Below, piece by piece: positions 16,300 to 62,849 of a DNA stretch of 64,000 nt (position 1 is the first letter of the stretch; every line of letters starts with the position of its first letter). The stretch lies in NCBI GenBank assembly GCA_036833315.1, contig DAITPY010000005.1, forward strand, positions 1,576 to 65,575. The letters run 5' to 3'. The notes under the pieces are model-generated. The model had not been told where the DNA came from and did no database searches. It saw only the letters and a list, made by a program, of their open reading frames with translations. Source of the stretch: Candidatus Dormiibacterota bacterium (GTDB lineage: Bacteria > Chloroflexota > Dormibacteria > Aeolococcales > Aeolococcaceae). Made by a program: the position numbers and the translations under genes.

Positions 16300-16318
16300 C
16301 GGCTGAGTGTAGGGGGCG

Positions 16319-23130: not shown

Positions 23131-23236
23131 GTTGCACCGAGTTATCCCAGCGAGAACGGCCGGATGATCGGCGACGACTTCTCATATAGCGGACCGGTGG
23201 GCATGATCTTCGTTATGTGGGCGTCGCTAGCCACTA

Positions 23237-41496: not shown

Positions 41497-42603
41497 CTAG
41501 CGACGGTCCCTCAGAAAGGCCGGGATGTCCAGGTCATCAACGTTGTAGGGCCCGGTCGGACGGCCACCCACGGTGAACGCAGGCTGGCGCTGTTCCGAAG
41601 CCACCGGCCGCGCCGAGGGCTCGTAGCTCAGGGTGCCGATGACGTCGATCTGGCCGGTGAAACCGGTGGCGATCACGGTGATCTTCACCTCGCCCTTCAT
41701 GTGCTCGTCGATGACGGTCCCGAAGATGATCTGCGCATCCGGGTCGGCCGACTCACTGACCAGTTGCGCCGCCTCGTTGACCTCGTAGAGCGTGAGGTCC
41801 GGACCTCCGGTGACGTTGAGCAGGATGCCCTTGGCGCCGGCGATGGTGGTCTCGAGCAGCGGGCTCGCCACCGCGTCCTTGGCAGCGTCCGCTGCGCGAG
41901 TATCGCCGCTGCCAAACCCGATGCCCATCAACGCCTGTCCCTGTCCCTGCATGATCGTCTTGACATCGGCGAAGTCGAGGTTGATGAGGCCGGGGAAGAC
42001 GATCAGATCGCTGATCCCCTGGACGCCCTGGCGCAACACATCGTCGGCGACCTTGAAGGCGTCACCGATGGGCGTCTTCTTGTCGACCACCTGCATGAGC
42101 CGTTCGTTGGGGATGGTGATCAGGGTGTCGACGCGGCCCTGCAGGTTCGCGATCCCCTCCTCAGCCGACTTCTGACGGCGCAGGCCTTCGAATCGGAAGG
42201 GCTTGGTGACCACGCCGATGGTCAGCGCACCGGTCTCCTTGGCGATCTCCGCGATGATCGGCGCGGCGCCCGTGCCGGTGCCACCGCCCATGCCCGCGGT
42301 GATGAACACCATGTCGCTGTCGGCGAGCGCCTTGGTGAGCTCGTCGCGCGACTCCTCCGCCGCCTCCATGCCCTTCTGGGGATCACCGCCGGCGCCGAGG
42401 CCACGCGTGAGCTTCCCGCCGATGCGAATCTTGATGTGCGCCGACGACGAGCTGAGGGCCTGGTGATCGGTGTTGATCGCGATGAACTCGACGCCCTTGA
42501 GGTTGCTCCGGATCATGCGGTTCACGGCATTGCTGCCGCCGCCGCCGACCCCCACGACGCGGATGCGGGCGTTGCCTTCGAGTGTCCGGTCGAGGTCTGC
42601 CAT
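41497..42603 (-). CDS. ftsZ: Cell division GTPase FtsZ
   Basis: [27 protein letters not shown] (tubulin signature), NLDFADV. Start at MADLD with GGAGA RBS; the upstream extension is rejected. Confidence 0.9.
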
Positions 42604-42715
42604 GACTATCTCCTCGCGTTGCGGGTTCATTTCTCGAGATGGGGGTGAATGTGATGGTGATTTGCGACGGGCGAGGGCATCACCCGGCTGGTCGAGCCCA
42701 TGGGTGCGCAGATGA

Positions 42716-43954
42716 TCAAAAGAGCTCACGAAACCACCTCGAGAACTTGGCCCCGGCGGCCGCGGCGCCGTCCGAGCTCTTGCCGTTGGAGCGTGACGGT
42801 CGGCGGCCGAGGTTGCTCCGGGCTCCCCAGCGCAGCAGGCCGACCACCGTGGCGTGGCTCGGTCCACTGATCTCGTCGTTCATGCCGTGCAATCCCTGCG
42901 GGGCGGCGACCCGCGCCGGCAGGTTGGTCTGCTGCTGCACCACCTCGGCAAAGCCGCGCAGCAAGGCTCCGCCACCGGTGATGACGATGCCGCCCGGGAA
43001 CATGCCGAGCGGTCCGGCACGCTCGACCTCTATGGCGATCAGCGAGGCCATCTCGCGCGCGCGTGGACCGATGATCTCTGCGAGGTAGCGCTGTGGAACG
43101 CCGACCGGTTCGTCGTATCCCATGGGCGTCAAGGTCACCTCGGCGTCGGCCGGGAGAGTCAGCTGCAGGCAGTGACCGAAGTTGCGCTTCACGGTCTCGG
43201 CTGTCTCGAGGTCGCAGCGCAGTCCCACCGCAAGATCCGCGGTCACGTGATTGCCGCCGACCGGGATGACGCTCGTGTGCACGATGCTGCCGCGCGCGAA
43301 CACCGCGATATCGCTGGTCCCACCACCGACATCGACGACCACCACACCACGCTCGATCTCGTCCTCGGTGACCACCGCCTCGGCGGATGCGAGCACCTGC
43401 AACACCATGTCGTCGACGTTGAGACCAGCCTTGTGCACCACCTTGACGACGTTCTGGATTGCGGTGTTCGCGCCGGTGATGATGTGAGCATCGACCTCGA
43501 GGCGATTGCCGGCCATGCCGATGGCGTCGCGCACTCCCTCCTGGCCGTCGATGGTGAACTGCTGCGGGAGCACGTGCACGATGCGTCGCTCCGAGGGAAC
43601 GCTCACCGCGCGCGCCGCGTCGATGGCGCGGTGCACGTCCTGGTCGCGGACCTCACGGTGTCCGGCGGCGACCGCGACCACGCCGCGGCTGTTCTGGGAG
43701 GTGATGTGCCCACCGGCGATGCCGACCACCGCCGAGTCGATCGGCACCCCTGACATCTGCTCGGCCATGTCGACAGCCTCGGCGACTGCCTCGGCCGCGC
43801 GGTCGATCTCGACCACGGCGCCCTTGCGGACCCCTTTGGAAGCGACCACACCGACACCCAGGACTCGGAGACCGGTGCTCTCCAAGTCGGCTGCGGCGCA
43901 GCAAACCTTGGTCGTTCCGATATCGAGTGCGAAGACGCGGCGAGGACGGGTCAC
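42716..43954 (-). CDS. ftsA: Cell division protein FtsA
   Basis: Actin-fold motifs: [24 protein letters not shown]. Confidence 0.9.
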
Positions 43955-44246: not shown

Positions 44247-45302
44247 CTACGCCCCGCTTGCAACCTCCAGAACGATCTTGCCGCGCAGGTCGCCGCGCGC
44301 CATCTCGGCGAACGCCGTCGCGGCATCCTCGAGGTGGTGCGTCGATCCGATGAGCGGGCGAAGCGCGCCGGTGGCGCAGAGATCCACGAGCATGCGCAAC
44401 TCGCCACGCGTCCCCATCGTCGTCCCGGCGACGGTGATGCTCCGGAAGAAGATCCGATTCAGCTGCGCCGGCGGGTTCGGCCCCCCGGTGGACCCGGGGA
44501 CGACCACGATGCCACCGGGTTTGACAGCCTTGAGGCTGAGCTCCCAGGTCGGCTCGCCGACGGTGTCGATGACCGCGTCGACACCGATCCCGCCGGTTGC
44601 GCCGACGACCGCGCGCGCGGTCTCGCGCTCCAGCGGAAACGCGGCCTCGGCGCCGAGGTCGACCGCCAGGGCCCGTTTCGCCTCATCGCGCGAGGTCGCG
44701 AAGACGGTGATCCCGGCGAGCCGGCAGAGCAGGATGCAGGCCGTCGAGACACCGCCGCTGGCTCCCTGTACGAGCACGTTCATGCCCGGCCGCAGGGCCG
44801 CGCGGATGAAGAGGGCGCGGTAGGCGGTCAGGTATGCGGTCGGCAGGCACGCGGCGTCGGCGAAGCTCACCTGGTCGGGAAGCGGGATCAGGTTCGCTGC
44901 CGGGATCTCGACGTATTCGGCCAGCGCACCGCCGAGTGGCGGCTCGCTCAGCATCCGCAGCGAGCGGCACGCCAGCGGCTCGTCGCTGAGGCATGCCGCG
45001 CAGGTCGCGCAGGTGGTGATCGGGTAGACGACGACCCTGCTGCCCTCAGCAGGCGCCCCGGGCGGGGGATCGCCTCCGTACCCGGCAACCTCGCCGGCGG
45101 CGTCGCAGCCGAGGATCTGGGGCGGAGTCACCGTCGTCGACGACACCCCGCGCAGCGTCCAGATGTCGTGATGGTTCAGCGACGCCGCGCGTACTTTGAC
45201 CAGCGCCCAGCCCGGACGTGGAGAGGGCGCGGGCAGGTCGCCGACAGCGAGATTCGCGAGCGGATCATCGCCGCCGATGGCGGCCGCATATGCCGCGAGC
45301 AC
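44247..45302 (-). CDS. Zinc-type alcohol dehydrogenase / quinone oxidoreductase (MDR superfamily)
   Basis: ALVKVRAASLNHHD, NAD-binding LVQGASGGVSTACILL, C-terminal KIVLEV. Start inferred at GTG 45302; the ORF-track start at 45392 would overlap metF. Confidence 0.7.
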   Translation of the reverse strand: MLAAYAAAIGGDDPLANLAVGDLPAPSPRPGWALVKVRAASLNHHDIWTLRGVSSTTVTPPQILGCDAAGEVAGYGGDPPPGAPAEGSRVVVYPITTCATCAACLSDEPLACRSLRMLSEPPLGGALAEYVEIPAANLIPLPDQVSFADAACLPTAYLTAYRALFIRAALRPGMNVLVQGASGGVSTACILLCRLAGITVFATSRDEAKRALAVDLGAEAAFPLERETARAVVGATGGIGVDAVIDTVGEPTWELSLKAVKPGGIVVVPGSTGGPNPPAQLNRIFFRSITVAGTTMGTRGELRMLVDLCATGALRPLIGSTHHLEDAATAFAEMARGDLRGKIVLEVASGA

Positions 45303-45316
45303 CGCTTGACCGTAGC

Positions 45317-46219
45317 ATGGTGCCTGCGATGCGTCTCGACAGCGTCCTCGAGGGCAGCCGGCAGCCGGTGTTCTCGTTCGAGTTCTTTCCACCGAAGACC
45401 GACGACGGCGTCCGCCAGCTCTTCGAGACCATCTCCCACCTGCGCGAGCTCGAGCCCACGTTCGTGTCGGTGACCTACGGCGCCGGGGGATCGGTGCGCA
45501 CGCGCACCGTGGACCTGGTCACGCGGATCCGGAGGGAGCTCGACATCGAGCCGGTGGCACATCTGACCTGCGCGGATGCGACGGTAGCCGAGCTGCGCCT
45601 CATCCTGGATGGGTTGCGTGAAGCCGGCATCGACAACGTGCTCGCGCTGCGCGGCGATCCCCCTGATGGAGTCGAGCGTTTCGTCCTCACCGACGGAGGT
45701 CTCGCCCACGGCAACGAGCTGATGGAGCTGGTCACCGGCGCGTACGGGTTCTGCGTCGGGGGCGCGTGCAACCCGGAGAAGCACCCGGAGTCGGCCAACA
45801 CCGAAGAGGATGTGCGCTCCGCAAAGCGCAAGGCCGACGCGGGCGCCAGCTACCTGATCACCCAGCTGTTCTTCGACAGCAGCAGGTACTTCGACTTCGT
45901 GGCGAGAGCTCGCGCGGCCGGGGTCACGGTGCCCATCATCCCGGGGATCATGCCGGTGACCAACGTCGGTCAGATCCGCCGTTTCACGTCGAAGATCGGC
46001 GCCACGATTCCCGAGCCGTTGCTCCAGGCGCTGCGTTTGCGCGAGGCCGATCCCGACGCCGTCCTGCAGCTGGGCGTCGCGTGGGCGACGCTGCAGTCGG
46101 CGGAGTTGCTCGCGGGCGGGGCGCCCGGGGTGCACTTCTTCACCATGAATCGCTCACCCGCGACGCGAGCGATCCTCTCTGCGCTGCGCGCCGCGCGCCC
46201 CTGGGATCGAGTTCGCTAG
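45317..46219 (+). CDS. metF: 5,10-methylenetetrahydrofolate reductase
   Basis: FSFEFFPPKT...VSVTYGAGGS...AHLTC...LALRGDPP...YLITQLFFD. Confidence 0.85.
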   Translation: MVPAMRLDSVLEGSRQPVFSFEFFPPKTDDGVRQLFETISHLRELEPTFVSVTYGAGGSVRTRTVDLVTRIRRELDIEPVAHLTCADATVAELRLILDGLREAGIDNVLALRGDPPDGVERFVLTDGGLAHGNELMELVTGAYGFCVGGACNPEKHPESANTEEDVRSAKRKADAGASYLITQLFFDSSRYFDFVARARAAGVTVPIIPGIMPVTNVGQIRRFTSKIGATIPEPLLQALRLREADPDAVLQLGVAWATLQSAELLAGGAPGVHFFTMNRSPATRAILSALRAARPWDRVR

Positions 46220-46231
46220 CGCTGCTCCTGT

Positions 46232-47347
46232 TCAGGCCGACGGCGAGGGCGACGGAGAAGGCCTTGGGGTGGTGGGCACGGTCACCGCGCCGGCAGTCGG
46301 GCTGCCGCTCGGCGACGGCGAGGGAGTCGGGGTGGGCTGCGGCGTCGGCGGCGGCACCGCCGACACGGCAGGAGGCGGCTGGGTTGCCGGGGCAACTGGG
46401 AGGAGCGCGGCGACGACCTCCGCCGGCAGCCCGGGGCGACCGCCGATCACGGGATCGGCCGGCGATTCGATGTCGAGGTAGCCGAACGCGGGCTTTGCAT
46501 AATCCAGCTTGCCCTTGAGCGCTGCCATGGTCTCGATCTGCTTCGGCAGCGCCTGCAGGGCGAGCTCGGTGTCGAGCGGTCCGAGCACCGCGCGCCACCC
46601 CGAGCTCGTCCAGAGACTGACCACGTCGTCCGATCCCCACAGGTAGGCGGCGACCGAGCAGCCGAAGACGGCCGGAAAGCGCTGCGCGATGGCCCCGAGC
46701 ATCGCCACGAGCTGCGGGTTGAGTGGCTGCGGGGAGCCGGCGCGATCGTCGATCAGCACCGGGATGCCGCTGCGTGCCGCGGGCGTCGCGTCGATGCCGG
46801 GCAGCGTCGCGCCGTTGGCGGCGACCAGCGTGTCGCCTCCGTCGCGGCGAATGCGCAGCACCGGGGCGCGCTCGACGATGTTGATTCGAACCGTCGCCGG
46901 CAACTGAGTGGTCACGACCGCGCTCGCCACCCACGGCAGCGCCAGCACCCGGCCCTGGATCGCCGCCCCGTTGATGGTGAAGATGCTCTCCTCCGGGACC
47001 CTCGCGGCGGCCACCACCGCGGTGGTGGTGACCAGGCGGGTGCCGGCGACCATCACCCGGCGCACCTGGAACGCGGGCAGTGTCAACGCCAGCGCGAGCA
47101 GACCCACCTGCACGGTGAGCGCCGCGACCGCGATGAGGCGGCGTCGCCAGGAGGTGCTTCGACGCGCGGCGGGCGGCGCCGGCTGGGTGCGGCGCGCGTG
47201 CCGGCGCTTGCGGGACGACGCCTGCAGCCGCGTCCCGGGCCGGACCACCAGGCGGGGCACCGGTCGCGCGGCGTCGACGATCAGCGACGCCTGGGCACGG
47301 ACGAGGGCGACGTGGCGCGCGCGCTCGTCGAGCACCTGGGTGCTCAC
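46232..47347 (-). CDS. ftsQ: Cell division protein FtsQ/DivIB with Pro/Thr/Ser-rich C-terminal tail
   Basis: Single TM (LIAVAALTVQVGLLALALTLPAF), POTRA-like region, FtsQ-type beta domain. Position upstream of ftsA. Confidence 0.7.
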   Translation of the reverse strand: MSTQVLDERARHVALVRAQASLIVDAARPVPRLVVRPGTRLQASSRKRRHARRTQPAPPAARRSTSWRRRLIAVAALTVQVGLLALALTLPAFQVRRVMVAGTRLVTTTAVVAAARVPEESIFTINGAAIQGRVLALPWVASAVVTTQLPATVRINIVERAPVLRIRRDGGDTLVAANGATLPGIDATPAARSGIPVLIDDRAGSPQPLNPQLVAMLGAIAQRFPAVFGCSVAAYLWGSDDVVSLWTSSGWRAVLGPLDTELALQALPKQIETMAALKGKLDYAKPAFGYLDIESPADPVIGGRPGLPAEVVAALLPVAPATQPPPAVSAVPPPTPQPTPTPSPSPSGSPTAGAVTVPTTPRPSPSPSPSA

Positions 47348-47433: not shown

Positions 47434-49128
47434 TTATCCCCCAGGAGCAGCCGGAGTGACCGGCCTGGCGCGCGACCCGCGGGCAGCGGGGAGATAGGTG
47501 TCCGGGAGATCGTTTGCGAAGAGGACGACGTCGCCGGACTTCGACAGCCGCTGGAGCACCGTGGTCGCCTCATCGAGGCTGTCGACGATGTGGATGCGGT
47601 CCTCGCGCATGCCGGCGCCGCGAAGCCCCGCGCACAGTGCCTCGCTGGTCTTCGCCGACATCACGATGACGTGGTCGCACACCGTCGCGGCGTGGGCGCC
47701 GTAGCGGCGGTTCTCCGCGTCCTCGACACTGCCCAGCTCGACGAGCCCCGGGGTCACCAGGAACTTCGCGCCTCCCGTCATGGCCTCGAGCACCTCGAGA
47801 CCGTTGTGCACGCCGACCGGGTTGGCGTTGTACGAGTCGTCGATGACCGTCAACGGGCCGGCGGTGCGCATCAACTGGAGTCGGTGCTCGACCTGCTCGA
47901 GGGACGCGGCGGCTGCGATCGCGGCATCGACCGAGTGGCCGAGCACGCGCACCGCGGCCAGCGCCGCGCTCACGTTCGCCACCTGGTGGCGGCCGAGCAA
48001 CGGGATGACGACCGCGCGGTCCAGGCCCTCTGCCGTCCACCGCCATTGGAAGGCGCACCCCTGCGCGCTGATGCGGATCGACGTGGCCACAACGTCGGCG
48101 TCTGTCGTGGTCCCGGTGTCCGCCAGCTCGTAGCGGATCACCCGATGCGGCGCCGCGCTCGCGCGGCGTGCGAGCGCGGCACCCGGCTCGTCGCCGGTAT
48201 GCACGATCGCGGTGCCGTCGACCGGGAGCGCGGCGACGACCTCGTACATCGCGTCGGTGATGCGGTCGAGGGTCCCGAATCGCTCCATGTGCTGGGGTCC
48301 GATCGCGGTGACGATCGCCACCTGGGGATGCACGAGGTCGCTGATCGCGGCGATCTCGCCGTGCGCATAGGCGTCCATCTCCACGACGAAGACGCGGTGC
48401 GCGGGCTGGAGGTCCTCGTTGATCGTGCGGCTCACCCCCATCAGCGTGTTGAAGCTCTTGCGCGTGGGCAGGGTGTTCACGCTCGGCTGGAGGAGCTGGG
48501 CGAGGATGTGCTTGGTGCTGGTCTTGCCGTAGCTCCCTACCACCGCGACCACCAACGGGTCGACCTCGGTGAGCCTTGTCGCGGCCAGGGCGAGGTAGTG
48601 GCTGCGGATGCGCGCCTCCGCGGGTTTCGTGACGACATTGGCAGCAACGAGGAGGACATCACTCAGGCTGGTCACCAGGCCGGCGGCGACCAGGACCAGC
48701 ACCGCCGCCACGATCGGGTGCAGGGCCAGGATCCCGAGCGCGACCCCGGCGGCCAGCAGGACCGCGAGAAAGCCGCCGGCGATGAGCAGGCGGCGCATCC
48801 GCGCGGTCATCACCAGTGGTCGCTTGGGCGCGGTCCATCGCCAGGTCAGTTGCGCCGCCGCGCCCGAGGCCAGCCACGCGATCGCGATGGCCAGGGTCCG
48901 AGCCGCGGGGAGCACCGCCGCAACGGCGAGAGCGAGCACGCCGACGGCGAGGCCGAGCCAGACGGTGCGATGGGCGAGCCACTGGCGGGTCATGCCCCAT
49001 CGCAGGAACCGGATCGACTCGTACTCCTCGATCTGGAACATGCGCGCCGCTACCAGGATGATGCGCACGACCAGCAGCAACCAGACGATGGCGGCGGCCG
49101 CAACCAGCGGTCCGAGCAGCGGGCTCAC
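47434..49128 (-). CDS. murF: MurF-like Mur ligase (UDP-MurNAc-pentapeptide synthetase) with N-terminal ~170-aa 4-TM membrane domain
   Basis: GSYGKTSTK P-loop, Mur-ligase central domain, MurF signature DDSYNANP. N-terminus consists of four strongly hydrophobic segments instead of the usual MurF domain 1. Confidence 0.75.
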   Translation of the reverse strand: MSPLLGPLVAAAAIVWLLLVVRIILVAARMFQIEEYESIRFLRWGMTRQWLAHRTVWLGLAVGVLALAVAAVLPAARTLAIAIAWLASGAAAQLTWRWTAPKRPLVMTARMRRLLIAGGFLAVLLAAGVALGILALHPIVAAVLVLVAAGLVTSLSDVLLVAANVVTKPAEARIRSHYLALAATRLTEVDPLVVAVVGSYGKTSTKHILAQLLQPSVNTLPTRKSFNTLMGVSRTINEDLQPAHRVFVVEMDAYAHGEIAAISDLVHPQVAIVTAIGPQHMERFGTLDRITDAMYEVVAALPVDGTAIVHTGDEPGAALARRASAAPHRVIRYELADTGTTTDADVVATSIRISAQGCAFQWRWTAEGLDRAVVIPLLGRHQVANVSAALAAVRVLGHSVDAAIAAAASLEQVEHRLQLMRTAGPLTVIDDSYNANPVGVHNGLEVLEAMTGGAKFLVTPGLVELGSVEDAENRRYGAHAATVCDHVIVMSAKTSEALCAGLRGAGMREDRIHIVDSLDEATTVLQRLSKSGDVVLFANDLPDTYLPAARGSRARPVTPAAPGG

Positions 49129-49910
49129 GCGCCGTGCACAGCCGTGGCGTCGCGAAGGAACACGTCGACGATGCGGCAGAAGCGGTCGGGTTGCTCGAGG
49201 TACGCGTAGTGGCCCGCGCCCTCGAACACGACGAGACCGGCATCAGGGATGAGGCGCTCCATGAGCCGGCCGTCGTCGACGGGGGTTTCGGTGTCGCGCT
49301 CGCCCCAGATCAGCAGCACCGGCATGCGCAGCGCCGGCAACAGTGCGCGCAGGTCCTCGTTGACGATGCGCACCAGCGTGCCTCGCATCGCCCCCGACGC
49401 GGCGCGATAGTCCGCTGAGCCGCGCTGATCGGCTCTGCGCTTCGCGCCGCGGCGCACGACGCTCGGCACCGCGGCCGACCGTTCGAGAGCGCGCAACACC
49501 TTGTAGGTGCGGACACGCGCGGCGTCGCGCACCGTCCGCCGCGGCCGGATGCCGGCGCTCCCCGCCAGCACCATGCTGCCGATCCGTTCCGGGTGCGCCG
49601 AGGCCAGGACGATCCCGATCCGGCCACCGTTGGAATGCCCGATCAGGTCGCATTGCTCGATGCCGAGGCGATCGAGCAAGGCGACGCACCATGCCGCGTA
49701 CTCATGCACCGACCACGCGGTGTCAGGCTCCGGGGTGGTGCCGAATCCTGGGAGGTCGGGGACGATGAGCTGCCGCCCACCCTGCAGGCCCGCGAGGATC
49801 GGCGCGAAAAGCTCGGACGACACGCCCCAGCCGTGGAGCAGCAGCAGGGGTCGCCCCGTCCCCGCAACGGTGACGGTTGCGCGGGGGATCTCCCCTGAGG
49901 CAGCGCCCAT
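49125..49910 (-). CDS. Alpha/beta-fold hydrolase
   Basis: LLLLHGWG...GHSNGG (nucleophile elbow GxSxG)...VLLIWGERD...GAGH. Start uncertain (M153 or M134 of the track ORF). Confidence 0.7.
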   Translation of the reverse strand: MGAASGEIPRATVTVAGTGRPLLLLHGWGVSSELFAPILAGLQGGRQLIVPDLPGFGTTPEPDTAWSVHEYAAWCVALLDRLGIEQCDLIGHSNGGRIGIVLASAHPERIGSMVLAGSAGIRPRRTVRDAARVRTYKVLRALERSAAVPSVVRRGAKRRADQRGSADYRAASGAMRGTLVRIVNEDLRALLPALRMPVLLIWGERDTETPVDDGRLMERLIPDAGLVVFEGAGHYAYLEQPDRFCRIVDVFLRDATAVHGA

Positions 49911-49939: not shown

Positions 49940-51133
49940 TCAGCCCGGCCTGCCGGTGAGCAGCCATGTGTCGATGGAGGACGTGGTTGCCTGTTGCTCG
50001 CGATAGCGCGACATGGCCATGTCGACGAGACGTGTGAGGAGCGCGTCGAAATGCACCCCCGACGCATCCCAGAGGTAGAAGGAGAGCGAGCCGGGCAGGG
50101 TGTTCAACTCGTTGACGACGAACGAATCGCTCTCCGGTGACACCAGGAAGTCGACGCGCGCCACGCCGGCGGCGCCGACGGCGCGAAACGCCGACGCTGC
50201 CGCGTCCTGGATCCGTTGTGTCAGAGCATCGGAGATGGGTGCGGGGATGATCCGCTGCGAGCTCTTCATGCCCGTCGCGGGCGCGGTCGCGCTCCCCTTG
50301 CTCTTGGCGCCGCTGAGATATTTGTCGGCGTAGCTCAGCGTTCCGGCGCTCACCGGCTGCTCGCACACCGAGACCTGGACATCGTCGCCGTGCCCCAGCA
50401 CCGAGCAGTTGATCTCGATGATGCCGTCCTGTGCCGGCTCGGCGAGGACCGACGTGTCGTAGCGGAACGCAAGGTCGAGCGCGTCACGAAGCGCGTCGTT
50501 CGCCGCCACGCGCGCGACCCCGATGCTCGATCCGAGGCGACGCGGTTTCACGTACATCGGGTAGCCGGGACTGCGCTCGAGCTCGGCGATCACATCGTCG
50601 GGTTGGGTCAGCCAGCGGGCGCGGGCGATCGCGACATCGTCGAGCACCGGAAGGCCGGCGCCGCGCAGCGCCGTCCTGGCGAGCCGCTTGTCCATGCTGA
50701 CCGCGGCCGCCGCAACACCGCATCCGCAGTAGGGCACTCCGGCAAGCTCGAACAGCCCCTGGAGCGTGCCGTCCTCGCCATTCGACCCGTGGACGAGTGG
50801 CATCGCGACGTCGAAGCGCGCCGCCGCACGCGGGGACCCGCCAAGCAGCGCACGGCGCCCATCGACCTCGATGAGATCACCAGCGCTACCAGGCTCCGGG
50901 CGCATCGTGACCCGCGTCGACGCGGCGACCAGCCTGTCGATGTCCTTGTAGCGTTCGAGCTGGAGCAACAGCTCGCTGGTGTACCAGGCACCGGACTTCG
51001 CGATGTAGACGGGGACCGGGACGAGATGGTCCGCGGGCATCGCCGCCATCGCCTGCTGCGCGGTGATCACCGACACCTCGTGCTCAACAGAACGGCTGCC
51101 GAAGAAGACGCCGACCCTGAGTCGATCGGTCAT
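49940..51133 (-). CDS. ddl: D-alanine--D-alanine ligase
   Basis: LRVGVFFGSRSVEHEVSV...HGSNGEDGTLQGL..., ATP-grasp C-terminal half. Confidence 0.9.
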   Translation of the reverse strand: MTDRLRVGVFFGSRSVEHEVSVITAQQAMAAMPADHLVPVPVYIAKSGAWYTSELLLQLERYKDIDRLVAASTRVTMRPEPGSAGDLIEVDGRRALLGGSPRAAARFDVAMPLVHGSNGEDGTLQGLFELAGVPYCGCGVAAAAVSMDKRLARTALRGAGLPVLDDVAIARARWLTQPDDVIAELERSPGYPMYVKPRRLGSSIGVARVAANDALRDALDLAFRYDTSVLAEPAQDGIIEINCSVLGHGDDVQVSVCEQPVSAGTLSYADKYLSGAKSKGSATAPATGMKSSQRIIPAPISDALTQRIQDAAASAFRAVGAAGVARVDFLVSPESDSFVVNELNTLPGSLSFYLWDASGVHFDALLTRLVDMAMSRYREQQATTSSIDTWLLTGRPG

Positions 51134-52044
51134 GCGTCACCGGGTGCGGCTGAGCCGAGCAGGATGATCTCGCGCTCCAGGTCGACCCCGAACGCCGTGT
51201 GCACCGCATCGTGCGCGACCCGCACGAGCGCAAGCACGTCAGCCGAGGTGGCGTGGTCGACGTTGAGGATGAAGTTCGCGTGCTTCGGCGAGATCTGCGC
51301 CCCGCCGCTCCTCCGCCCCTTGAGCCCGGCAGCCTCGATGAGCCTTCCGGCCGTGTCGCCTGGGGGGTTCTTGAAGACACTGCCGAGGCTCCGGATCCCG
51401 TATGGCTGGGATGCCTTGCGCTGCGCCTGGACCTGGTCCGTTCGCTCGCGAACGAGCGCGGGATCGTCGCGATGGACGCTCAGCCGCGCGCTCACCACCA
51501 CGTGGCCGCGCAGGTCGCGCTTGAAGCGGGAGTCGCGGTATCCGAACCCGCACCCAGCCGCATCAAGGGTCACCGGCTCTCCGTCGGGGGCGAGCGCGGT
51601 GCAGTCGACGAGCACGTCGGCGATCTCGGTGCCGAATGCACCGGCGTTGCCGAACACGCTCGCACCACAGGTGCCGGGCACGCCGACACCGAACTCGAGG
51701 CCGGCGATCCCGCGCGATGCACAGTCAAGCGCCACGCGCGGCATCATGCAGCCGGCGCCGAGCTTCACGATGTGATCGTCCACAATCGCCAGCATCCGAT
51801 CGTTGTGGCGGATCACCAGCCCGTCGATGCCGTCGTCGCTGATGAGCGCGTTGCTGCCCGCTCCGAGCATGGTCACGCTGATCCGCGACTGGTTGCAACG
51901 CGCGAGCAGCTCGCCAAGCGCTCCTGCATCACGGGTCGTGATGAACCACCGGGCCGGACCGCCGACGCCGAACTGGCTGTGACGCGCAAGCGGCTCGTCG
52001 ACGCGCACCCCGGGCAGGGACTCGAGCCAGTCACCCGCCGACAC
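51130..52044 (-). CDS. murB: UDP-N-acetylenolpyruvoylglucosamine reductase
   Basis: FAD-binding: GVGGPA...MLGAGSNALISDDG. C-terminal SLGSVFKNPPG. Confidence 0.85.
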   Translation of the reverse strand: MSAGDWLESLPGVRVDEPLARHSQFGVGGPARWFITTRDAGALGELLARCNQSRISVTMLGAGSNALISDDGIDGLVIRHNDRMLAIVDDHIVKLGAGCMMPRVALDCASRGIAGLEFGVGVPGTCGASVFGNAGAFGTEIADVLVDCTALAPDGEPVTLDAAGCGFGYRDSRFKRDLRGHVVVSARLSVHRDDPALVRERTDQVQAQRKASQPYGIRSLGSVFKNPPGDTAGRLIEAAGLKGRRSGGAQISPKHANFILNVDHATSADVLALVRVAHDAVHTAFGVDLEREIILLGSAAPGDA

Positions 52045-53437
52045 CCTGGGCCTCCAGGGCGCCGAACAATCGCGGCGCCAGGCGGTCGAAACCACCGAGA
52101 GAGAGGACGAGGAGCACATCACCCGGACGGATGGTGCCGGTGATCAGCTCGATCGCATCCGCGCTCGATGCGACGACATGGACCTCCGCGGTCGATCCCG
52201 CGCGGGCGGCGACATCCTCGCTGGAGACGGTCTTGGGCATCCCCCGCTCGCGTGCCTCCTCGATCGGGCCGATGATCACCACGTCCGCGCCGGTGAAGCT
52301 CCGCCGGTAATCGTCGAGCAGGCGGGTCACTCGCGAGTACGTGTGCGGCGTGTGGATGGCGATCAATCTTCGTCCCGGATAGCGCTGCCGAGCCGCGTCG
52401 ATTGCCGCATACACCTCGGTTGGGTGATGCGCGTAGTCATCCACCACCGCGACTCCCCCGCGCTCGCCGAGGATCTCGAAACGCCGTGCCGGACCGCGAA
52501 AATCGGCGCATGCGCGCGCGCCGACCTCGGGATCCACGTCCGAGTGGTTCGCGAGGATGAGCGCAGCGCACGCGTTCTGGGCGTTGTGGACACCCGGAAA
52601 GGTGAGCCGCACCTCGAGCTGCGGCAGGCCGCGCCGCTCCACCGCGAAGCGCTGCACGCCGTGTTCGTCTCTCGCGTCAATGATCCGCCAGTCGCTCTCC
52701 CGGTTCAAGCCATAGGTGACGACAACAGACCCGGTCGCGGATGCGAGCGCGAGGCACTCAGGATCGTCGGCGCAGAGCGCCAGCACGCCGGTGGTGGGCA
52801 TGGTCGCCGCAAGCTCGATGAAGGGTTGGCGGTAGGCGTCGAGGTCGGCGTACACATCCGGGTGGTCGAGCTCGAGTCGGGTGACGCAGGCGCCGTCCGG
52901 CTTGGTGTGGAGGAACTTCGGCCGCGGATCCCACGGCGCCGACGTGTACTCATCCCCCTCGAAGACGAACGCCCCGGTCCCCAGCCTCGCGGTGCCGCCG
53001 AGGTCGAGCGACGTCGAGCCGAGCCTGAACCCCGGGTCGAGCCCGGCGCGGTCGAGGATGTGCACCAGCAGCGCGGACGTGGTCGTCTTGCCGTGAGTGC
53101 CGCAGACCGTGAGACGGGTGCGATCACCCGCAAGCGCCACGTAGAACTCGATCTCACTGACGCATGGAAGTCCGCGCTCGCGTACCGCCGCCAGCTCGGG
53201 GTTCGCCGCGCGCGTCTGATTGCCGACGACCACCAGGTCAGGGACGCCCCACCGGTCCAGGTTCGCGGGGTCGCTCCGGTTCTCCCACTCGATGCCGGCG
53301 GCGGTCACCGCCTCGCTCATCGGTGGATAGGCATGGTCGTCCGACCCGGTGACCCGGTCGCCCTTCGACAGCGCGAGGGTTGCGGCGCCGAAGGTCGCGT
53401 AGCCGCAGATCCCGAGCACGTGGACGTGCCTGGTCAC
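52031..53437 (-). CDS. murC: UDP-N-acetylmuramate--L-alanine ligase
   Basis: HVLGICGY...CGTHGKTTTSAL...DDYAHHP. GTG start with GTGA overlap onto the murG stop. Confidence 0.9.
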   Translation of the reverse strand: MTRHVHVLGICGYATFGAATLALSKGDRVTGSDDHAYPPMSEAVTAAGIEWENRSDPANLDRWGVPDLVVVGNQTRAANPELAAVRERGLPCVSEIEFYVALAGDRTRLTVCGTHGKTTTSALLVHILDRAGLDPGFRLGSTSLDLGGTARLGTGAFVFEGDEYTSAPWDPRPKFLHTKPDGACVTRLELDHPDVYADLDAYRQPFIELAATMPTTGVLALCADDPECLALASATGSVVVTYGLNRESDWRIIDARDEHGVQRFAVERRGLPQLEVRLTFPGVHNAQNACAALILANHSDVDPEVGARACADFRGPARRFEILGERGGVAVVDDYAHHPTEVYAAIDAARQRYPGRRLIAIHTPHTYSRVTRLLDDYRRSFTGADVVIIGPIEEARERGMPKTVSSEDVAARAGSTAEVHVVASSADAIELITGTIRPGDVLLVLSLGGFDRLAPRLFGALEAQGVGG

Positions 53438-54540
53438 GCGACGTTGCTCCGCCTGCCCGGGCCCGCGGTCTCGACGATGAGCTGCACCACCGAGGCGGTG
53501 GCGTCGGGAAGACCAAGCGCAGCGCTCGTCGCGGACATCCGCCGCCACCGTGCCGGGTCGGTCACCAGCGCGGTGATCTCGGCGCGGAGGCGCTCCGGCG
53601 TGCACTCGGCGTCGTCGATGAGCATCGCGGCTCCTGCCTCGACGTACGGAGCGGCGTTGTGGCGCTGATGCCCGCCGGCGTGGGGATAGGGAACGACGAT
53701 CATCGGACGTCCGAGGGCGGCGCACTCCGCGAGTGACGATCCTCCCGCGCGCATCACCACGAGATCACTCTGAGCGATCCGGACGGCCATGTCGTCGAAG
53801 AAGGCAGACACGGTGTATCGCGATGCCAGGGCCGGCGGGAGCGCACCGGCCGCCCGGGCGACCCGCTCGTAGTCGAGGCTCCCGCACTGGTGGACGATGC
53901 TCAGTTGGGGGTCGTCGCCGAGCAGTACGCCGACGCACCCGGTCACGGCCCGGTTGAGGCGGCGCGCTCCCTGCGAACCTCCGGTCACCAGCACCGTCCG
54001 CAAGCGCTCGCCGATCGGCCGCGGGCGAACTGCGCGCACCTCCGCCCGGACCGGGTTACCGGTGTGGACCACCCGTGCATTGGGCAGGTGGCGGGCTGTC
54101 TCGGTGAACGACGCCGCCACCACCCTGGCTCTGCGGGCGAGGAGCCGCGTCGCTCGGCCCGGAACCGCGTTCTGTTCGAGGAGCACCACCGGGATGCGCT
54201 GCGCCAGCGCCGCGGCCACCACCGGCACCGAGACGTATCCGCCGGCCCCGACGACGACGTCGGGCCGCATCCTCTTGAGCAGTCGCCGGGCCGCCATGGT
54301 GGCGCGGGTCAGCTGAGTCGTCGCGCGCGCGATGCCTCCCGGGCTGCGCACGTCGACGCCGCTCACATCGAGGGTTTCAAGGCGAAGTCCCGCGGCGACC
54401 ACCAGGCGTTCGGCCACCCCGTCGCGGCGGCCGACCACGACCACCTCGTCGTCAGGCCGAGCGTCTCTGAGTGCGAGCGCCACCGCCAGCGCCGGGGTCA
54501 GGTGGCCCCCAGTCCCCCCCCCAGCTATCAACGTGCGCAC
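53434..54540 (-). CDS. murG: UDP-GlcNAc--undecaprenyl-PP-MurNAc-pentapeptide GlcNAc transferase
   Basis: LIAGGGTGGHLTPALAVA. GTG start at 54540 with AAGGGA RBS. Confidence 0.85.
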   Translation of the reverse strand: MRTLIAGGGTGGHLTPALAVALALRDARPDDEVVVVGRRDGVAERLVVAAGLRLETLDVSGVDVRSPGGIARATTQLTRATMAARRLLKRMRPDVVVGAGGYVSVPVVAAALAQRIPVVLLEQNAVPGRATRLLARRARVVAASFTETARHLPNARVVHTGNPVRAEVRAVRPRPIGERLRTVLVTGGSQGARRLNRAVTGCVGVLLGDDPQLSIVHQCGSLDYERVARAAGALPPALASRYTVSAFFDDMAVRIAQSDLVVMRAGGSSLAECAALGRPMIVVPYPHAGGHQRHNAAPYVEAGAAMLIDDAECTPERLRAEITALVTDPARWRRMSATSAALGLPDATASVVQLIVETAGPGRRSNVA

Positions 54541-55738
54541 GATTCTTCGTCCCTTGCCGTCGACCCTGGGCGGAGATGTTGAGCAGGATGCCCATGCCCA
54601 CGAGGGTGGTCGCCAGCGAGGTGCCACCGTAGCTGATGAACGGCAAGGGGATGCCGGTCGTCGGGATCACACCGGTCACCGCCATCACGTTGATGAAGGC
54701 CTGCATGCAGATCCACGATGTGATGCCTCCCGCGAGCAGAGCGCCGAACCGGTCGGGCGCGCGCAGCGAGGCGCGCACTCCGCGCCACGCCAGGAAGAGA
54801 AACGCCACGAGCACCGCGACGGTTCCGATCAAGCCGAGCTCCTCGCCGATGATCGCGAAGATGAAGTCGGTATGGGCCTCGGGCAGCCACTCGTACTTCT
54901 GCACCGAGCTGCCGAGCCCGACTCCGAAGATCCCGCCCGACCCGAACGCATAGAGCGCCTGGCAATTCTGGAACCCAGAGCCGAGCGCGTCGGCGCAGGG
55001 GTTGAGGAAGTGGGCCAGGCGGTCGGCGCGATACGAGACCAGCGCGACCAGGCCGACGCCACCGGCCCCGAACAGGGCGAGGATCAGGATCAGGTGGCGC
55101 TTCCGCGCGCCGGCGAGGGCGAGCAGGATCAGCGCCGTGGTCGCGATCACTATCGAACTCCCCAGGTCGCGCTCGGCGAGGACGAGCCCGAGGAGGGCGA
55201 AGAGCACGACAAGGTAGTCGCGGACGCCGCGCAGGCTCCGCACCGTGGCATCGCGGTCGGTGAGCCAGCGGGCGAAGAAGACCACGGCGACCCCGACGGC
55301 GATCGCCGAAGGCTGCACCGAGAGCGGTCCGATCTGGAACCAGCGCTGCGCCCCGAAGTGCCGGGAGCCGACGTGGGGGATGAGCACCACCAGGAGCAGG
55401 AGCAGCACGAGGAACATCACCGGCCTGGCGAGCGGGGCCAGGCGGTGGTAGTCGACACGCGCGGCCACCACGAGGCCGACGCCACCGAGCGCGGCGCCGA
55501 GCAACTGGTGCGCGAAGAAGTAGTTCGGGTCGTTGTACCAGAGGAAGCCCAGCGCCTCCGAAGCGCTGTAGACCATCACCAGCCCGAAGCCGACCAGGCC
55601 GACGACGATGATCATCAGCCAGCCGTCGACCCCGGCAGCGGCCGCGGCGCGATCTGCGCTGGCGAATGCGCCGGCGACTCGTGAGCCGCCGCGCCAGCGT
55701 CCTGCGAGACCTGTGAGCCTGCCGGCCCGTGCGGCCAT
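54452..55738 (-). CDS. ftsW: SEDS-family peptidoglycan polymerase FtsW
   Basis: About 10 TM, PFISYGGTSLATTLVGMGILLNIS. The 3' end appears to overlap the murG start by ~88 nt. Confidence 0.85.
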   Translation of the reverse strand: MAARAGRLTGLAGRWRGGSRVAGAFASADRAAAAAGVDGWLMIIVVGLVGFGLVMVYSASEALGFLWYNDPNYFFAHQLLGAALGGVGLVVAARVDYHRLAPLARPVMFLVLLLLLVVLIPHVGSRHFGAQRWFQIGPLSVQPSAIAVGVAVVFFARWLTDRDATVRSLRGVRDYLVVLFALLGLVLAERDLGSSIVIATTALILLALAGARKRHLILILALFGAGGVGLVALVSYRADRLAHFLNPCADALGSGFQNCQALYAFGSGGIFGVGLGSSVQKYEWLPEAHTDFIFAIIGEELGLIGTVAVLVAFLFLAWRGVRASLRAPDRFGALLAGGITSWICMQAFINVMAVTGVIPTTGIPLPFISYGGTSLATTLVGMGILLNISAQGRRQGTKNRAHVDSWGGDWGPPDPGAGGGARTQRRSA

Positions 55739-57102
55739 CAGGCGCTGCCCGCCACGGAGTGCGCGATGCCGCCGACGAGCACCGCGAAGGTGTCGCCACG
55801 ATCCTCGAAGTCGCGGAACTGGTCGAAGCTCTTGTACCCGGGCGCGAGCAGGACCACGTCACCATCCCGGGCGATCTCCCCGGCCGCGCGCACCGCCTCG
55901 GCGAGGGTCGCGACCACCAGCCGTTCTGCGAAGCCGCGCTCGGCGAGGGCCGAGTCGAGCTCAGCGGCGCTCGCCCCGTTGAGGATCGCGAACCGTGCCC
56001 GATGAGCTACCTCGTCCGCGAGGCCGTCGATCGAGAAGCCGGCGCCCTTGCCACCGCCGATCCAGATGATCGTGCGACCGGGGAAGCTGCGCAGCGCGGC
56101 CACCGCTGATTCGACATTGGTCGCCTTGCTGTCGTTGATCCAGAGCACGCCGGCCTCGTCCCGAACCGTCTGGAGGCGGTGTGGCACCGCCCGGAAGTCA
56201 CGCACCGCGCCGGCGATCGGTGGGGTGTCGACTCCGGCGGCGCGAGCGACGGCCACCGCGGCGAGCACGTTCAGCAGGTTGTGCTCGCCGAACAGGGGCA
56301 CGTCCGCCACCGGCATGACGGTCGTGAGCACGCCTGCCGTGACGCTGACCACGTCGCCGTCACGCTTGGCCGCGCCGTCGCTGATGCCGGGCTGCAGGCC
56401 GAAGTGGTGCACACGGGAATGGGCGACTGCCGCCATCTCCTTCGTGATCGGATCGTCCCAGCCGAGCACCGCGTCGTCGACGGCGAATCGCACCAGGCGT
56501 CGCTTGGTCTCGGCGTATGCGGCGAGGTCGCCGTGGCGATCGAGGTGATCCGGGGTGACGTTGAGCACGCATGCAATCGAGCAGCGCGGCTCGCGAACCG
56601 ACTCGATCTGGAACGACGAAAGCTCCAGGACCACCCAGTCGGAATCGCCGACGTCGTCGAGTCGGTCGAGCATGGTCACACCTATGTTCCCGCCGAGGTG
56701 GACGCGCTCCCCGGCGCGCTCGAGGATGGCGGCGACCAGTGCCGTCGTGGTGGTCTTGCCGTTGGTGCCGGTGATCCCGCAGATCCGCGCCCGGCAGCGT
56801 TCGAACACGAGGTCCATCTCGCTGCGCACCGGGACTCCGTGGGCCCGCGCGACCTCGAGCTCGGGCGCGTCCCAGGGAACCCCCGGGCTCGGGCACACCA
56901 TGAGCGCGTGCGCAGCCACGTCGTCGGGATAGCCGCCGAGGCGCACGTCGACGCTTTCCGGGAGGCTCGCGACCCGCTCGTGGATCGCGGGCGTGTCGGC
57001 GCGGTCGACCAGCACGACGCGATGACCCTCACGCGCGAGCGTGCGAGCGCAGGCGAGACCACTCCGTCCCGCGCCGATCACCACCACCGGCTGATCGGTC
57101 AC
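55738..57102 (-). CDS. murD: UDP-N-acetylmuramoylalanine--D-glutamate ligase
   Basis: VVVIGAGRSGLACAR...GITGTNGKTTTTAL...DSKATN. Confidence 0.9.
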   Translation of the reverse strand: MTDQPVVVIGAGRSGLACARTLAREGHRVVLVDRADTPAIHERVASLPESVDVRLGGYPDDVAAHALMVCPSPGVPWDAPELEVARAHGVPVRSEMDLVFERCRARICGITGTNGKTTTTALVAAILERAGERVHLGGNIGVTMLDRLDDVGDSDWVVLELSSFQIESVREPRCSIACVLNVTPDHLDRHGDLAAYAETKRRLVRFAVDDAVLGWDDPITKEMAAVAHSRVHHFGLQPGISDGAAKRDGDVVSVTAGVLTTVMPVADVPLFGEHNLLNVLAAVAVARAAGVDTPPIAGAVRDFRAVPHRLQTVRDEAGVLWINDSKATNVESAVAALRSFPGRTIIWIGGGKGAGFSIDGLADEVAHRARFAILNGASAAELDSALAERGFAERLVVATLAEAVRAAGEIARDGDVVLLAPGYKSFDQFRDFEDRGDTFAVLVGGIAHSVAGSA

Positions 57103-58061
57103 GCCGCTGTCCCTGCCACGTGCGAGAAGAGGACTGTCACCGCGGCGCCGACCGCGGCGGCCGCCGCGAAACAGGCGACAAGCCGTTGCTCGCGAAGGCC
57201 GATCTCCTCGAAGTGGTGATGGATCGGGCTCGCCCGAATCAGGCGCCGCCCGAACCTCCGGATCGCGGTCACGTTGGCGACCACGCTGGCCGCCTCGACG
57301 ACGAACACGATGCCGAGCACCGGGAGGAACCAGATCAGGTGCAGCTCGGCGGTGAGCGCGACCACCACACACCCGAGCGCCAGCGATCCCGTATCACCCA
57401 TGAAGACCCGCGCCGGAAACCAGTTGAAGAGCAGGAACGCTGCGACGGCTCCGGCCAGCGACGCCGCGAGCACCGCGACCGTGGCATCACCGCGGGTGAC
57501 GGCGATGATCGCGATCGCCACGAGCACGATCACCGTGCATGATGCGGCGAGCCCGTCGACCCCGTCGGTCAGGTTCACGGCGTTGCTGGTCGCCACCACG
57601 GCGATGGCGACGACCACCGCCAGCCCCAAGCCGAGGTTGGGGGCCCCGAGCCCCGGGAAGAACTGATGGGTGAACCCGGCGATGGTCAGGCCGATCCCGA
57701 CGAGCACGCCGACCACCCCCTGGAGGCCGACCTTCTGCCATACCGTGAGCCCGAGCCTCCTCGCATCGCTGATGTTGACGATGTCGTCGAGGCCACCCGC
57801 GATGGCGCCGGCGACGAGCGCAAAGATCGGGACGAAGCCCTGGCGGGAGCGGTCGACTGCGAGCCACACCACCACCGCGACGGCACAGAAGAGCGCCCCG
57901 CCGAGGGTGGGCGTTCCCTCCTTGGCGCGGTGGCTGGCCGGACTGTACGAGGCGACGTGCTGGCGTGCGCCGGTGCGAACCAGGATCCCGATGAACGCCG
58001 GATAGAGCGCCACTCCCGCCGCGAAGGCGATCACCCCGACGATGATCGCCTGCCTCATGGG
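57099..58061 (-). CDS. mraY: Phospho-N-acetylmuramoyl-pentapeptide transferase
   Basis: NAVNLTDGVDGLA...MGDTGSLALG...HHHFE. Confidence 0.9.
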   Translation of the reverse strand, partial: PMRQAIIVGVIAFAAGVALYPAFIGILVRTGARQHVASYSPASHRAKEGTPTLGGALFCAVAVVVWLAVDRSRQGFVPIFALVAGAIAGGLDDIVNISDARRLGLTVWQKVGLQGVVGVLVGIGLTIAGFTHQFFPGLGAPNLGLGLAVVVAIAVVATSNAVNLTDGVDGLAASCTVIVLVAIAIIAVTRGDATVAVLAASLAGAVAAFLLFNWFPARVFMGDTGSLALGCVVVALTAELHLIWFLPVLGIVFVVEAASVVANVTAIRRFGRRLIRASPIHHHFEEIGLREQRLVACFAAAAAVGAAVTVLFSHVAGTAA

Positions 58062-60450: not shown

Positions 60451-61464
60451 CTAGGGGGCGAGCTTTTCGGCCACCCGCAGGCGCGCCGAGCGAGACCGCG
60501 GATTGGTGGCGAGCTCGGCCGCGTCAGGTCTGATGACCTTGCGCGTGAGGAGAAAGAGAGTGGCCCGGTGGACGCAGGTGCAGTGGGGCTGTTGGGGCGG
60601 ACAAACACAGTTCTGTGCTGCGACGTGGAGTGCGTTCTTTACAAGGGAGTCCTCGAGGGAGTGAAAGGAGATGACCCCAAGACGCCCACCGGGCCGGAGG
60701 ATGCTGATTGCTGCCTGCAGGCCTCGTTCGAGGCTTTCGAGCTCGTGGTTCACCGCGATGCGAAGCGCCTGGAAGGTGCGCGTCGCGGGATGGATTCGCT
60801 TCGGCCAGAAGCGTCGCGGCACCACTTGCTCGACGAGCTCACGAAGCTGCGTCGTGGTGGTGAGTGGCACGAGCTCTCGGGCCCTCGCGATCCGGTTCGC
60901 GATGGGCCTGGCAAAGCGCTCGTCGCCGTACTCACGGATGAGTGACGCCAGCTCGTCGGCGGTCAGCGAATCCACCAGCTGCGCGGCGGTCTCGCCGGAG
61001 CTTGGGTCCATGCGCATGTCGAGCGGACCGTCGAGGCGGAAGCTGAATCCTCGGGCCGGGTCGTCGAGCTGGACCGAGGAGATGCCGAGGTCGAAGACGA
61101 CCGCGTCAGCGGCGACCACTCCGAACGAATGGACGATGGCATCGAGGTCCGCAAAGTCGCCCTGGGCGATCTGCACCGCGTCGCCATCCGCCGCGAAGCG
61201 AAGGCGCGCGGCCTCGACAGCGTCGTGATCGCGATCGATCGCGATCACCCGGCCGCCGGGAGACACGCGCTCGAGGAGCGCGGCCGTGACGCCCCCGGCG
61301 CCGAGTGTGGCGTCGACGGCAGTCTGCCCCGGCCGGGGCTGCAGGCTCTCTATGAGGGGTGTGAGAAGGACCGGCCGGTGGCCCGCGCCGTCAGGCGCCG
61401 GGGCACCGGGCGTGGCGTCGTTCGGCTTCCCCATGTCGGCCACGATCGGCATGGGGATCGTCAT
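60451..61464 (-). CDS. rsmH: 16S rRNA (cytosine1402-N4)-methyltransferase
   Basis: HRPVLL...DATLGAGG...FDLGISS...ISFHSLEDSLVK...ANPRSRSARLRVAEK. Confidence 0.9.
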   Translation of the reverse strand: MTIPMPIVADMGKPNDATPGAPAPDGAGHRPVLLTPLIESLQPRPGQTAVDATLGAGGVTAALLERVSPGGRVIAIDRDHDAVEAARLRFAADGDAVQIAQGDFADLDAIVHSFGVVAADAVVFDLGISSVQLDDPARGFSFRLDGPLDMRMDPSSGETAAQLVDSLTADELASLIREYGDERFARPIANRIARARELVPLTTTTQLRELVEQVVPRRFWPKRIHPATRTFQALRIAVNHELESLERGLQAAISILRPGGRLGVISFHSLEDSLVKNALHVAAQNCVCPPQQPHCTCVHRATLFLLTRKVIRPDAAELATNPRSRSARLRVAEKLAP

Positions 61465-62788: not shown

Positions 62789-62849
62789 CAGTCGTCGATC
62801 CACGTGCGCAAGCCTCCGTGTCCTGTGGGAGCAGCCCAGAGGATAGACT

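Follow-up and report, generated by a model that had tools for sequence, protein, structure and literature searches.

A MurF-type ligase with a predicted membrane domain in place of domain 1, and its conserved gene neighbours in many bacterial phyla

Introduction

MurF is regarded as a soluble, essential and universally similar enzyme, and as an antibiotic target. In the soluble enzyme, domain 1 holds the UDP end of UDP-MurNAc-tripeptide; the usual, though not universal, position of the gene is between murE and mraY in the division and cell wall (dcw) cluster. Here we describe a gene at positions 47434..49128 (minus strand) of a 64,000-nucleotide stretch of DNA (hereafter the window) from Candidatus Dormiibacterota bacterium (assembly GCA_036833315.1, contig DAITPY010000005.1, positions 1,576 to 65,575), whose product of 564 amino acids combines a five-helix membrane domain with MurF-type Mur ligase domains 2 and 3. 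We refer to this protein, and to the family that it represents, as TM-MurF.

The closest described relative is canonical soluble MurF (E. coli 1GG4, P. aeruginosa 4CVK, A. baumannii 4QF5), which has in common with TM-MurF domains 2 and 3, the P-loop, the catalytic Glu, His, Arg and Asp residues and the DD(S/T)YNANP motif. TM-MurF differs in being devoid of domain 1, in place of which it carries five membrane helices with cytoplasmic motifs of their own, and in having a constant hydrolase partner. Two other systems show a more distant likeness. MurT, a soluble protein with a DUF1727 C-terminal domain, a Cys-rich insert and a glutaminase partner, is part of the MurT/GatD lipid II amidotransferase; it is a member of the Mur ligase family devoid of the UDP-binding domain 1, and acts with its partner enzyme on a membrane-bound precursor. 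However, it matches TM-MurF only weakly, and the C-terminal domain of TM-MurF is of the MurF type. PgsB/CapB is likewise Mur-ligase-like and anchored in the membrane via an N-terminal hydrophobic segment; PgsB is anchored by one segment only and, together with PgsC/PgsA, produces a polymer, poly-gamma-glutamate.

As to gene arrangement, a parallel exists in Campylobacter jejuni: the alpha/beta hydrolase Cj0796c is encoded between ddl (Cj0798c) and murF (Cj0795c), just downstream of the former and next to the latter; attempts to delete Cj0796c failed, and the hydrolase is reported to be possibly essential (PMC5530802). A list of essential genes of this organism includes murF and ddl (PMC3229698). 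In the locus described below, too, ddl and a MurF gene are accompanied by an alpha/beta hydrolase gene. A membrane-anchored MurF, which according to an earlier note on this DNA is not known to have been described, was not found in our full-text literature searches for such an enzyme or for the gene trio either: papers on Dormibacterota/Chloroflexi and a paper on MurE-MurF architecture are silent on a transmembrane (TM) MurF.

Results

The ligase portion of TM-MurF spans residues ~190-545 and contains two Pfam domains, namely the Mur ligase middle, ATP-binding domain (PF08245, E = 2.2e-33; residues 196-393, 47950..48543, minus strand) and the Mur ligase C-terminal domain (PF02875, E = 4.7e-15; residues 415-538, 47515..47886, minus strand). 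Inside the middle domain lies the P-loop GSYGKTS (residues 198-204, nt 48517-48537, minus strand), and the C-terminal domain includes the motif DDSYNANP (residues 430-437, nt 47818-47841, minus strand), which is matched in the alignments with the MurF proteins of P. aeruginosa and E. coli. Among 54 homologues, the catalytic Mur ligase residues G198, S199, G201, K202, E250 and H280 are invariant. The form DD(S/A)YN(A/S)NP of this motif is that of MurF; the corresponding motif is DDYAHHP in the MurC of the window and DYAHTPD in the MurE of a related locus.

Profile, sequence and structure comparisons point in the same direction. The best NCBIfam match is TIGR01143 (murF; E = 5e-61, 206.8 bits), restricted to profile positions 58-403 of 418, as compared with E-values of 3e-23 for murC, 4e-20 for murD and 4e-15 for murE. 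The best sequence matches in the Protein Data Bank (PDB) are the MurF proteins of P. aeruginosa, E. coli and A. baumannii (E = 3.5e-39 to 1.5e-32), and a Foldseek search with an AlphaFold2 (AF2) model of TM-MurF returned MurF at ranks 1-9 (~370 aligned columns, 26-29% identity), followed by MurE and MurC. Judged from these comparisons, the ligase part is of the MurF type, with domain 2 (ATP), domain 3 (incoming dipeptide) and all catalytic residues kept.

Other Mur-ligase-like proteins were considered as candidates and rejected. The MurT model gives 25.5 bits against a cutoff of 800 and covers residues 187-335 only; DUF1727 is absent and the gene neighbours are a hydrolase and Ddl, not GatD. 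PgsB/CapB does not figure among the 23 NCBIfam matches, and genes resembling pgsC or pgsA do not occur in the neighbourhood. Cyanophycin synthetase reaches 22.8 bits against a family threshold of 850, and the neighbouring ATP-grasp protein is a bona fide Ddl. Finally, the NCBIfam score of FolC is marginal or nil.

The N-terminal part of the protein is of a different nature. Pfam finds no N-terminal Mur ligase domain (PF01225) in TM-MurF, and the PDB sequence alignments to MurF begin at residue 180-189 (179-189 with the Foldseek alignments included). Since alignments with MurF start only at residue ~175-189 and residues 1-165 are made up of membrane helices, domain 1 is replaced, and not merely preceded, by a membrane domain (residues 1-165; 48634..49128, minus strand), which is delimited by hydropathy, the AF2 model and the positive-inside statistics of the 54 homologues.

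Kyte-Doolittle analysis of TM-MurF gives hydrophobic blocks at residues 1-34, 51-88 and 111-167. The AF2 model, built on the 54 homologues, has a predicted local distance difference test (pLDDT) score of 91.4 and a predicted template modelling (pTM) score of 0.90. It places helices at residues 5-33 (TM1), 54-72 (TM2), 74-95 (TM3), 109-135 (TM4) and 138-189, with TM5 extending from 138 to ~163 and an amphipathic helix at 38-52; the ligase fold begins at residue 189. In the 54 homologues the mean number of Lys plus Arg residues is 4.2 in the loop 29-54, 5.4 in the loop 96-112 and 5.1 in the segment after TM5, as opposed to 0.1, 0.2 and 0.3 in the N-terminal tail and the two short turns. According to the positive-inside rule, this alternation of charge corresponds to an N-out/C-in topology, with the ligase on the cytoplasmic side.

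Three conserved motifs stand out on the predicted cytoplasmic side. The first is QIEEY in cytoplasmic loop 1 (residues 32-36; 49021..49035, minus strand; consensus LHxxQLExY), in which Q32 and Y36, following TM1, are invariant. The second is the basic cytoplasmic loop 2, PKRPLVMTARMRR (residues 101-113; 48790..48828, minus strand; consensus KKPLVxTxRAxRL), which precedes TM4 and in which T108, R110 and R113 are invariant. The third is KPAEARI, where TM5 exits into the ligase (residues 168-174; 48607..48627, minus strand; consensus ANxxxxPxExxI), with P169 invariant and E171 conserved in 92% of the homologues. The basic cytoplasmic loops adjoin the ligase domains. A plain anchor would not need invariant polar residues, so the membrane domain is probably more than that. 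Neither NCBIfam nor Pfam holds a model for this domain or for the architecture of the protein.

The earlier note had described a protein with MurF hallmarks in which four hydrophobic segments stand where MurF normally has its soluble substrate-binding domain, and had proposed a membrane tether that would couple the last cytoplasmic step to MraY. The hallmarks were recovered, both as motifs and as Pfam domains, and the displacement of the soluble domain agrees with the AF2 model and the loop charges, which describe a polytopic membrane domain. The hydrophobic character of the region therefore stands; the count of segments has to be raised to five helices, and the idea of a simple tether does not fit the invariant residues on the cytoplasmic loops.

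The TM-MurF gene is an uninterrupted open reading frame (ORF) with a GTG start codon, which shares the sequence GTGA with the stop codon of the upstream gene; no earlier in-frame start is present. More than 600 database proteins match it. The best 120 of these matches come from Candidatus Dormibacterota assemblies, with 75-94% identity, a coverage of 97-100% of the query and, in nearly all cases, a length of 549-564 amino acids. Hundreds of homologues are of the same length and can be aligned without a break, from residue ~8-30 up to 545; they include representatives of other phyla, among them low-GC ones. In the AF2 model the junction between membrane domain and ligase is confidently predicted as one continuous helix (138-189). 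A frameshift or mis-joined ORF, which the earlier note had named as a possible refutation, is ruled out by the intact reading frame, the full-length homologues and this confident junction; the other refutation that it had named, a soluble N-terminus, fails as well. Although the region has a G+C content of 70%, the hydrophobic N-terminus is not an artefact of Ala/Leu-rich translation of high-GC DNA, because low-GC homologues keep the same segments with Ile, Phe and Leu as the prevailing residues.

To describe the distribution of the family, we used an exhaustive search of 1.84 billion cluster representatives (threshold E <= 1e-30) and a locus survey, which scanned one genome per species. The first gave 2,458 matching representatives; the best 150 of them are nearly all 515-565 amino acids long, and most align from residue ~8-30 to 545 with 33-59% identity. 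The full architecture is common to at least 150 clusters (at 50% identity) over many phyla, all automatically annotated as MurF. The locus survey yielded 80 TM-MurF loci from more than 10 phyla. The groups represented are Dormibacterota, Chloroflexota, Poribacteria, NC10, Acidobacteriota, Omnitrophota, Cyanobacteria, Thiomargarita, many Bacillota (among them the isolates Gracilibacillus massiliensis, Pseudalkalibacillus sp. A8, Peptoniphilus stercorisuis and Sporosalibacterium faouarense) and many Bacteroidales. The survey in related genomes that the earlier note called for uncovered a large multi-phylum family and not a local curiosity. In Endothiovibrio diazotrophicus (L081, 2014-3567) the gene has neither hydrolase nor Ddl neighbours and adjoins a PIN-domain gene and a gene for a PAS/Rce1-like protein.

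Clustering of the ORFs that neighbour TM-MurF in the 80 loci revealed two recurrent partners. A hydrolase of ~255 amino acids is encoded upstream on the same strand in 70 of the 80 loci, mostly less than 200 nt away, and a Ddl of ~400 amino acids downstream on the same strand in 62, again mostly within 200 nt. Ddl is co-located with TM-MurF in 66 of the 80 loci altogether; in Dormibacterota and in one Acidobacteriota locus it lies upstream instead. About 70 of the 80 loci have kept the trio of hydrolase, TM-MurF and long Ddl, and the exceptions are mostly loci cut by contig ends. In an Omnitrophota locus (L035, 8004-9900) two tandem alpha/beta-hydrolase genes, and not one, are located upstream of TM-MurF.

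In the window, the hydrolase gene (49125..49910, minus strand; 261 amino acids; Pfam Abhydrolase_1, E = 2.7e-31) is situated between ddl and TM-MurF. It has an ATG start codon preceded by GGGGAG, and its stop codon is the one that overlaps the TM-MurF start; the two genes are translationally coupled. The triad Ser94/Asp207/His235, the HGWG oxyanion motif and the family-specific motif GSxDY are 97-100% conserved in 68 orthologues. The NCBIfam EstV-family lipase model ranks fourth for this protein (93.7 bits), and for the orthologue of a Lachnospiraceae locus (L076) NF058580, 'EstV family lipase', is the best match. EstV of H. pylori has been described as a lipase and is not known as a cell-wall enzyme. 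A search of solved structures for clues to the function of the hydrolase returned generic family-V esterases and meta-cleavage-product hydrolases only, and literature searches on HP0739, HP0740 and EstV only unrelated uses of the abbreviation 'ESTV'.

Natural fusions of the two proteins occur in both orders. In the first (P0174; 864 amino acids, 11 members) the hydrolase is followed by an extra membrane helix, inferred from a hydrophobic segment at 285-318 ahead of the aligned TM1, and then by TM-MurF. In the second (P0137) TM-MurF precedes the hydrolase, and ~27 further clusters of this type were found in Chloroflexota. The extra helix of P0174 is consistent with the N-out topology, and both orders would place the hydrolase in the cytoplasm. 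Overall, TM-MurF represents a widespread, uncharacterised family with an unexplained obligatory partner.

The third member of the trio in the window (49940..51133, minus strand; Pfam) is a long DdlA-type D-Ala-D-Ala ligase of 397 amino acids. It matches NCBIfam NF002528 with 298.6 bits, above the cutoff of 262, and DdlA structures in the PDB with E = 1.6e-58; the Lys-Tyr pair of the omega loop is kept. Right after this pair, the trio Ddl proteins (window; L005-L080) carry a variable Gly/Lys/Ser-rich insertion of ~5-20 extra residues, which often ends in (K)GM and is longer than in the solved DdlA structures.

The trio is found at the end of a dcw cluster whose genes are all on the minus strand: rsmH (60451-61464), ftsI (58055-59827), mraY (57099-58583), murD (55738-57372), ftsW (54452-55738), murG (53434-54627), murC (52031-53725) and murB (51130-52122), followed by ddl, the hydrolase gene, TM-MurF and ftsQ (46232-47347). 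This order modifies one statement of the earlier note, according to which the gene sits beside ddl, in that the hydrolase gene intervenes; the other, that the gene is not upstream of mraY, holds, given that ftsI abuts mraY with no murE or murF between them. The trio Ddl is the only one in this dcw cluster. The longest ORFs of murC and murD are extended at the N-terminus by ~95 residues, in a stretch shared with the upstream genes; their real starts are probably further downstream, the extension being an effect of ORF calling in high-GC DNA.

A second MurF was sought in several ways. The TM-MurF sequence used in phmmer against all six-frame ORFs of the window of at least 100 amino acids found MurD only; Pfam analysis of 36 ORFs identified MurC, MurD and TM-MurF as the Mur ligases, with no murE and no second MurF in the 64 kb; and a motif scan of the window and of all 80 loci detected the MurF motif in one ORF per locus only. 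As murE is absent from the window, it must lie elsewhere in the Dormibacterota genome. Further information comes from four Poribacteria loci and one NC10 locus, in which the trio occupies the murF slot itself, in the order rsmH-ftsL-ftsI-murE-[hydrolase-TM-MurF-ddl]-mraY-murD-ftsW-murG, as established by Pfam on one locus (L006) and by independent gene calls on two (L083, L084).

Several other features of the window deserve mention. The division genes do not form one block: ftsQ is separated from ftsA/ftsZ (42716-43954 and 41497-42867, minus strand) by an insertion (44247-46219) with genes for a zinc-type alcohol dehydrogenase (44247-45392, minus strand) and a methylenetetrahydrofolate reductase (45218-46219, plus strand). 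Just upstream of the dcw cluster lies a Peptidase S51 gene of the cyanophycinase/dipeptidase E family (62096-63073, minus strand). Farther away, an ORF at 23227-24471 (minus strand) has a weak match to a Caudovirus prohead serine protease (Peptidase_S78, E = 1e-8) and may be a prophage remnant, and a gene at 13348-16620 (minus strand), flanked by histidine kinases, encodes a protein of 1090 amino acids with an adenylate/guanylate cyclase domain, an AAA_16 ATPase and tetratricopeptide (TPR) repeats.

Discussion

On balance, we favour, with moderate confidence, the view that TM-MurF is a membrane-integral form of MurF, the enzyme which adds D-alanyl-D-alanine in the synthesis of peptidoglycan precursors; most likely it carries out this step for the cell at the membrane face. 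The pathway could be as follows. Ddl would make D-Ala-D-Ala, and TM-MurF, acting at the cytoplasmic surface of the membrane, would join the dipeptide to the MurNAc-tripeptide precursor, with the loop motifs QxExY, KKPLVxTxRAxRL and PxE taking over the task of holding the diphosphate-sugar end of the substrate. In the version that we prefer, this substrate would remain UDP-MurNAc-tripeptide and the product would be passed directly to MraY, and the hydrolase would be a catalytically active partner of the ligase. The presence of the trio in the murF slot, the lack of a second MurF motif and the cluster of the window make a housekeeping role the best reading, and in the source organism TM-MurF is probably the only MurF.

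A number of observations weigh against this interpretation. Two defining features of the curated MurF family are missing in TM-MurF, namely domain 1 and a score above the curated cutoff (206.8 bits for TIGR01143, against 288.6). With the domain for the UDP-MurNAc end absent, the substrate, UDP- or lipid-linked, is putative. The genomic argument covers the 64-kb window, so that a canonical murF, like murE, may be located elsewhere in the genome. Stand-alone copies of TM-MurF exist in Endothiovibrio (L081), Thiomargarita (L047) and a cyanobacterium (L058), organisms which presumably carry a normal murF, and we assume that Bacilli and Bacteroidales have other forms of MurF too; NCBIfam contains a model for a MurF/alanine-racemase fusion (NF008897). 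As for the partner, the AF2 model of the natural fusion P0137 has a pTM of only 0.65 with a disordered linker, and for this reason we claim no defined interface between ligase and hydrolase.

Since a normal murF is to be expected in the taxa with stand-alone copies, some members of the family, at the least, would be extra paralogues. This suggests that among Proteobacteria and Cyanobacteria TM-MurF occurs as an accessory paralogue, too, and it is probable that the family mixes sole MurFs with extra copies. Extended to the locus described here, this leads to the first alternative, rather unlikely in our estimate, in which the trio is a self-contained module and a canonical MurF encoded elsewhere does the main job. 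The module might then synthesise and attach a different dipeptide, act under special conditions (stress, sporulation, antibiotic tolerance) or ligate a peptide to another membrane-bound carboxylate. The occurrence of the family in Gracilibacillus, Pseudalkalibacillus and Bacteroidales, in addition to Endothiovibrio and Thiomargarita, the score under the MurF cutoff and the fact that the trio has its own Ddl with an extended omega loop are all in line with such a role, and a hydrolase beside a pair of ligases recalls resistance-type cassettes. On the other hand, the trio Ddl retains the omega-loop Lys-Tyr pair that characterises D-Ala-D-Ala ligases and is the sole Ddl of the dcw cluster of the window, where no other murF was found; in Poribacteria and NC10 the trio fills the canonical murF slot, and no further gene with the MurF motif was detected in 20 kb.

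The second alternative, which we consider unlikely, concerns the substrate. With the UDP-binding domain lost, a lipid-linked substrate is equally conceivable, and D-Ala-D-Ala could be added to undecaprenyl-pyrophosphoryl-MurNAc-tripeptide (lipid I or II with a tripeptide stem), the order of steps being MurE, MraY, TM-MurF. In that case the lipid pyrophosphate would find its binding site in the membrane domain and the basic loops at the interface. A polytopic membrane domain in place of a wholly lost domain 1, with invariant Arg, Lys and Thr residues exactly at the membrane-cytoplasm interface, is what such a substrate would lead one to expect, and a precedent is offered by MurT, which as a Mur-ligase-like subunit amidates lipid II, is likewise devoid of domain 1 and figures among the weak matches. 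This argument proceeds by analogy, however, and the conserved loops could bind UDP equally well; the tripeptide nucleotide would have to be the normal substrate of MraY; and the order murE-[trio]-mraY in Poribacteria and NC10, though compatible with the alternative, is the one predicted by the classical order of reactions. Improbable as we hold it to be, the broad form of this idea is that in a wide range of bacteria (Dormibacterota, Chloroflexota, Poribacteria, NC10, many Clostridia and Bacteroidales) a membrane MurF acts after MraY on lipid-linked MurNAc-tripeptide, together with an obligatory serine hydrolase; if true, the late 'cytoplasmic' steps of peptidoglycan synthesis would not follow the textbook order in all bacteria.

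The last alternative, that a separate upstream membrane ORF has been joined to a truncated murF by a frameshift or an assembly error, or that the hydrophobicity stems from high G+C, is next to impossible, since its single point in favour is a base composition that promotes Ala/Leu/Val-rich translations, and it is contradicted by the unbroken ORF, the homologues of equal length, their single-stretch alignment in other phyla, the invariant motifs inside the N-terminal part and the confidently modelled junction.

A large clade has swapped the substrate-anchoring domain of MurF for a polytopic membrane domain. The site of precursor recognition would consequently differ in many phyla, among them the abundant Muribaculaceae and Clostridia of the gut and the Dormibacterota and Chloroflexota of soil, and inhibitors and annotation rules based on canonical MurF may not transfer to these proteins. 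The conserved alpha/beta hydrolase with its intact triad, whose C. jejuni counterpart Cj0796c could not be deleted, emerges as a probable factor of cell-wall synthesis. More generally, TM-MurF raises the question of where the soluble pathway meets the membrane, be it through channelling of the precursor to MraY or through a lipid-linked intermediate.

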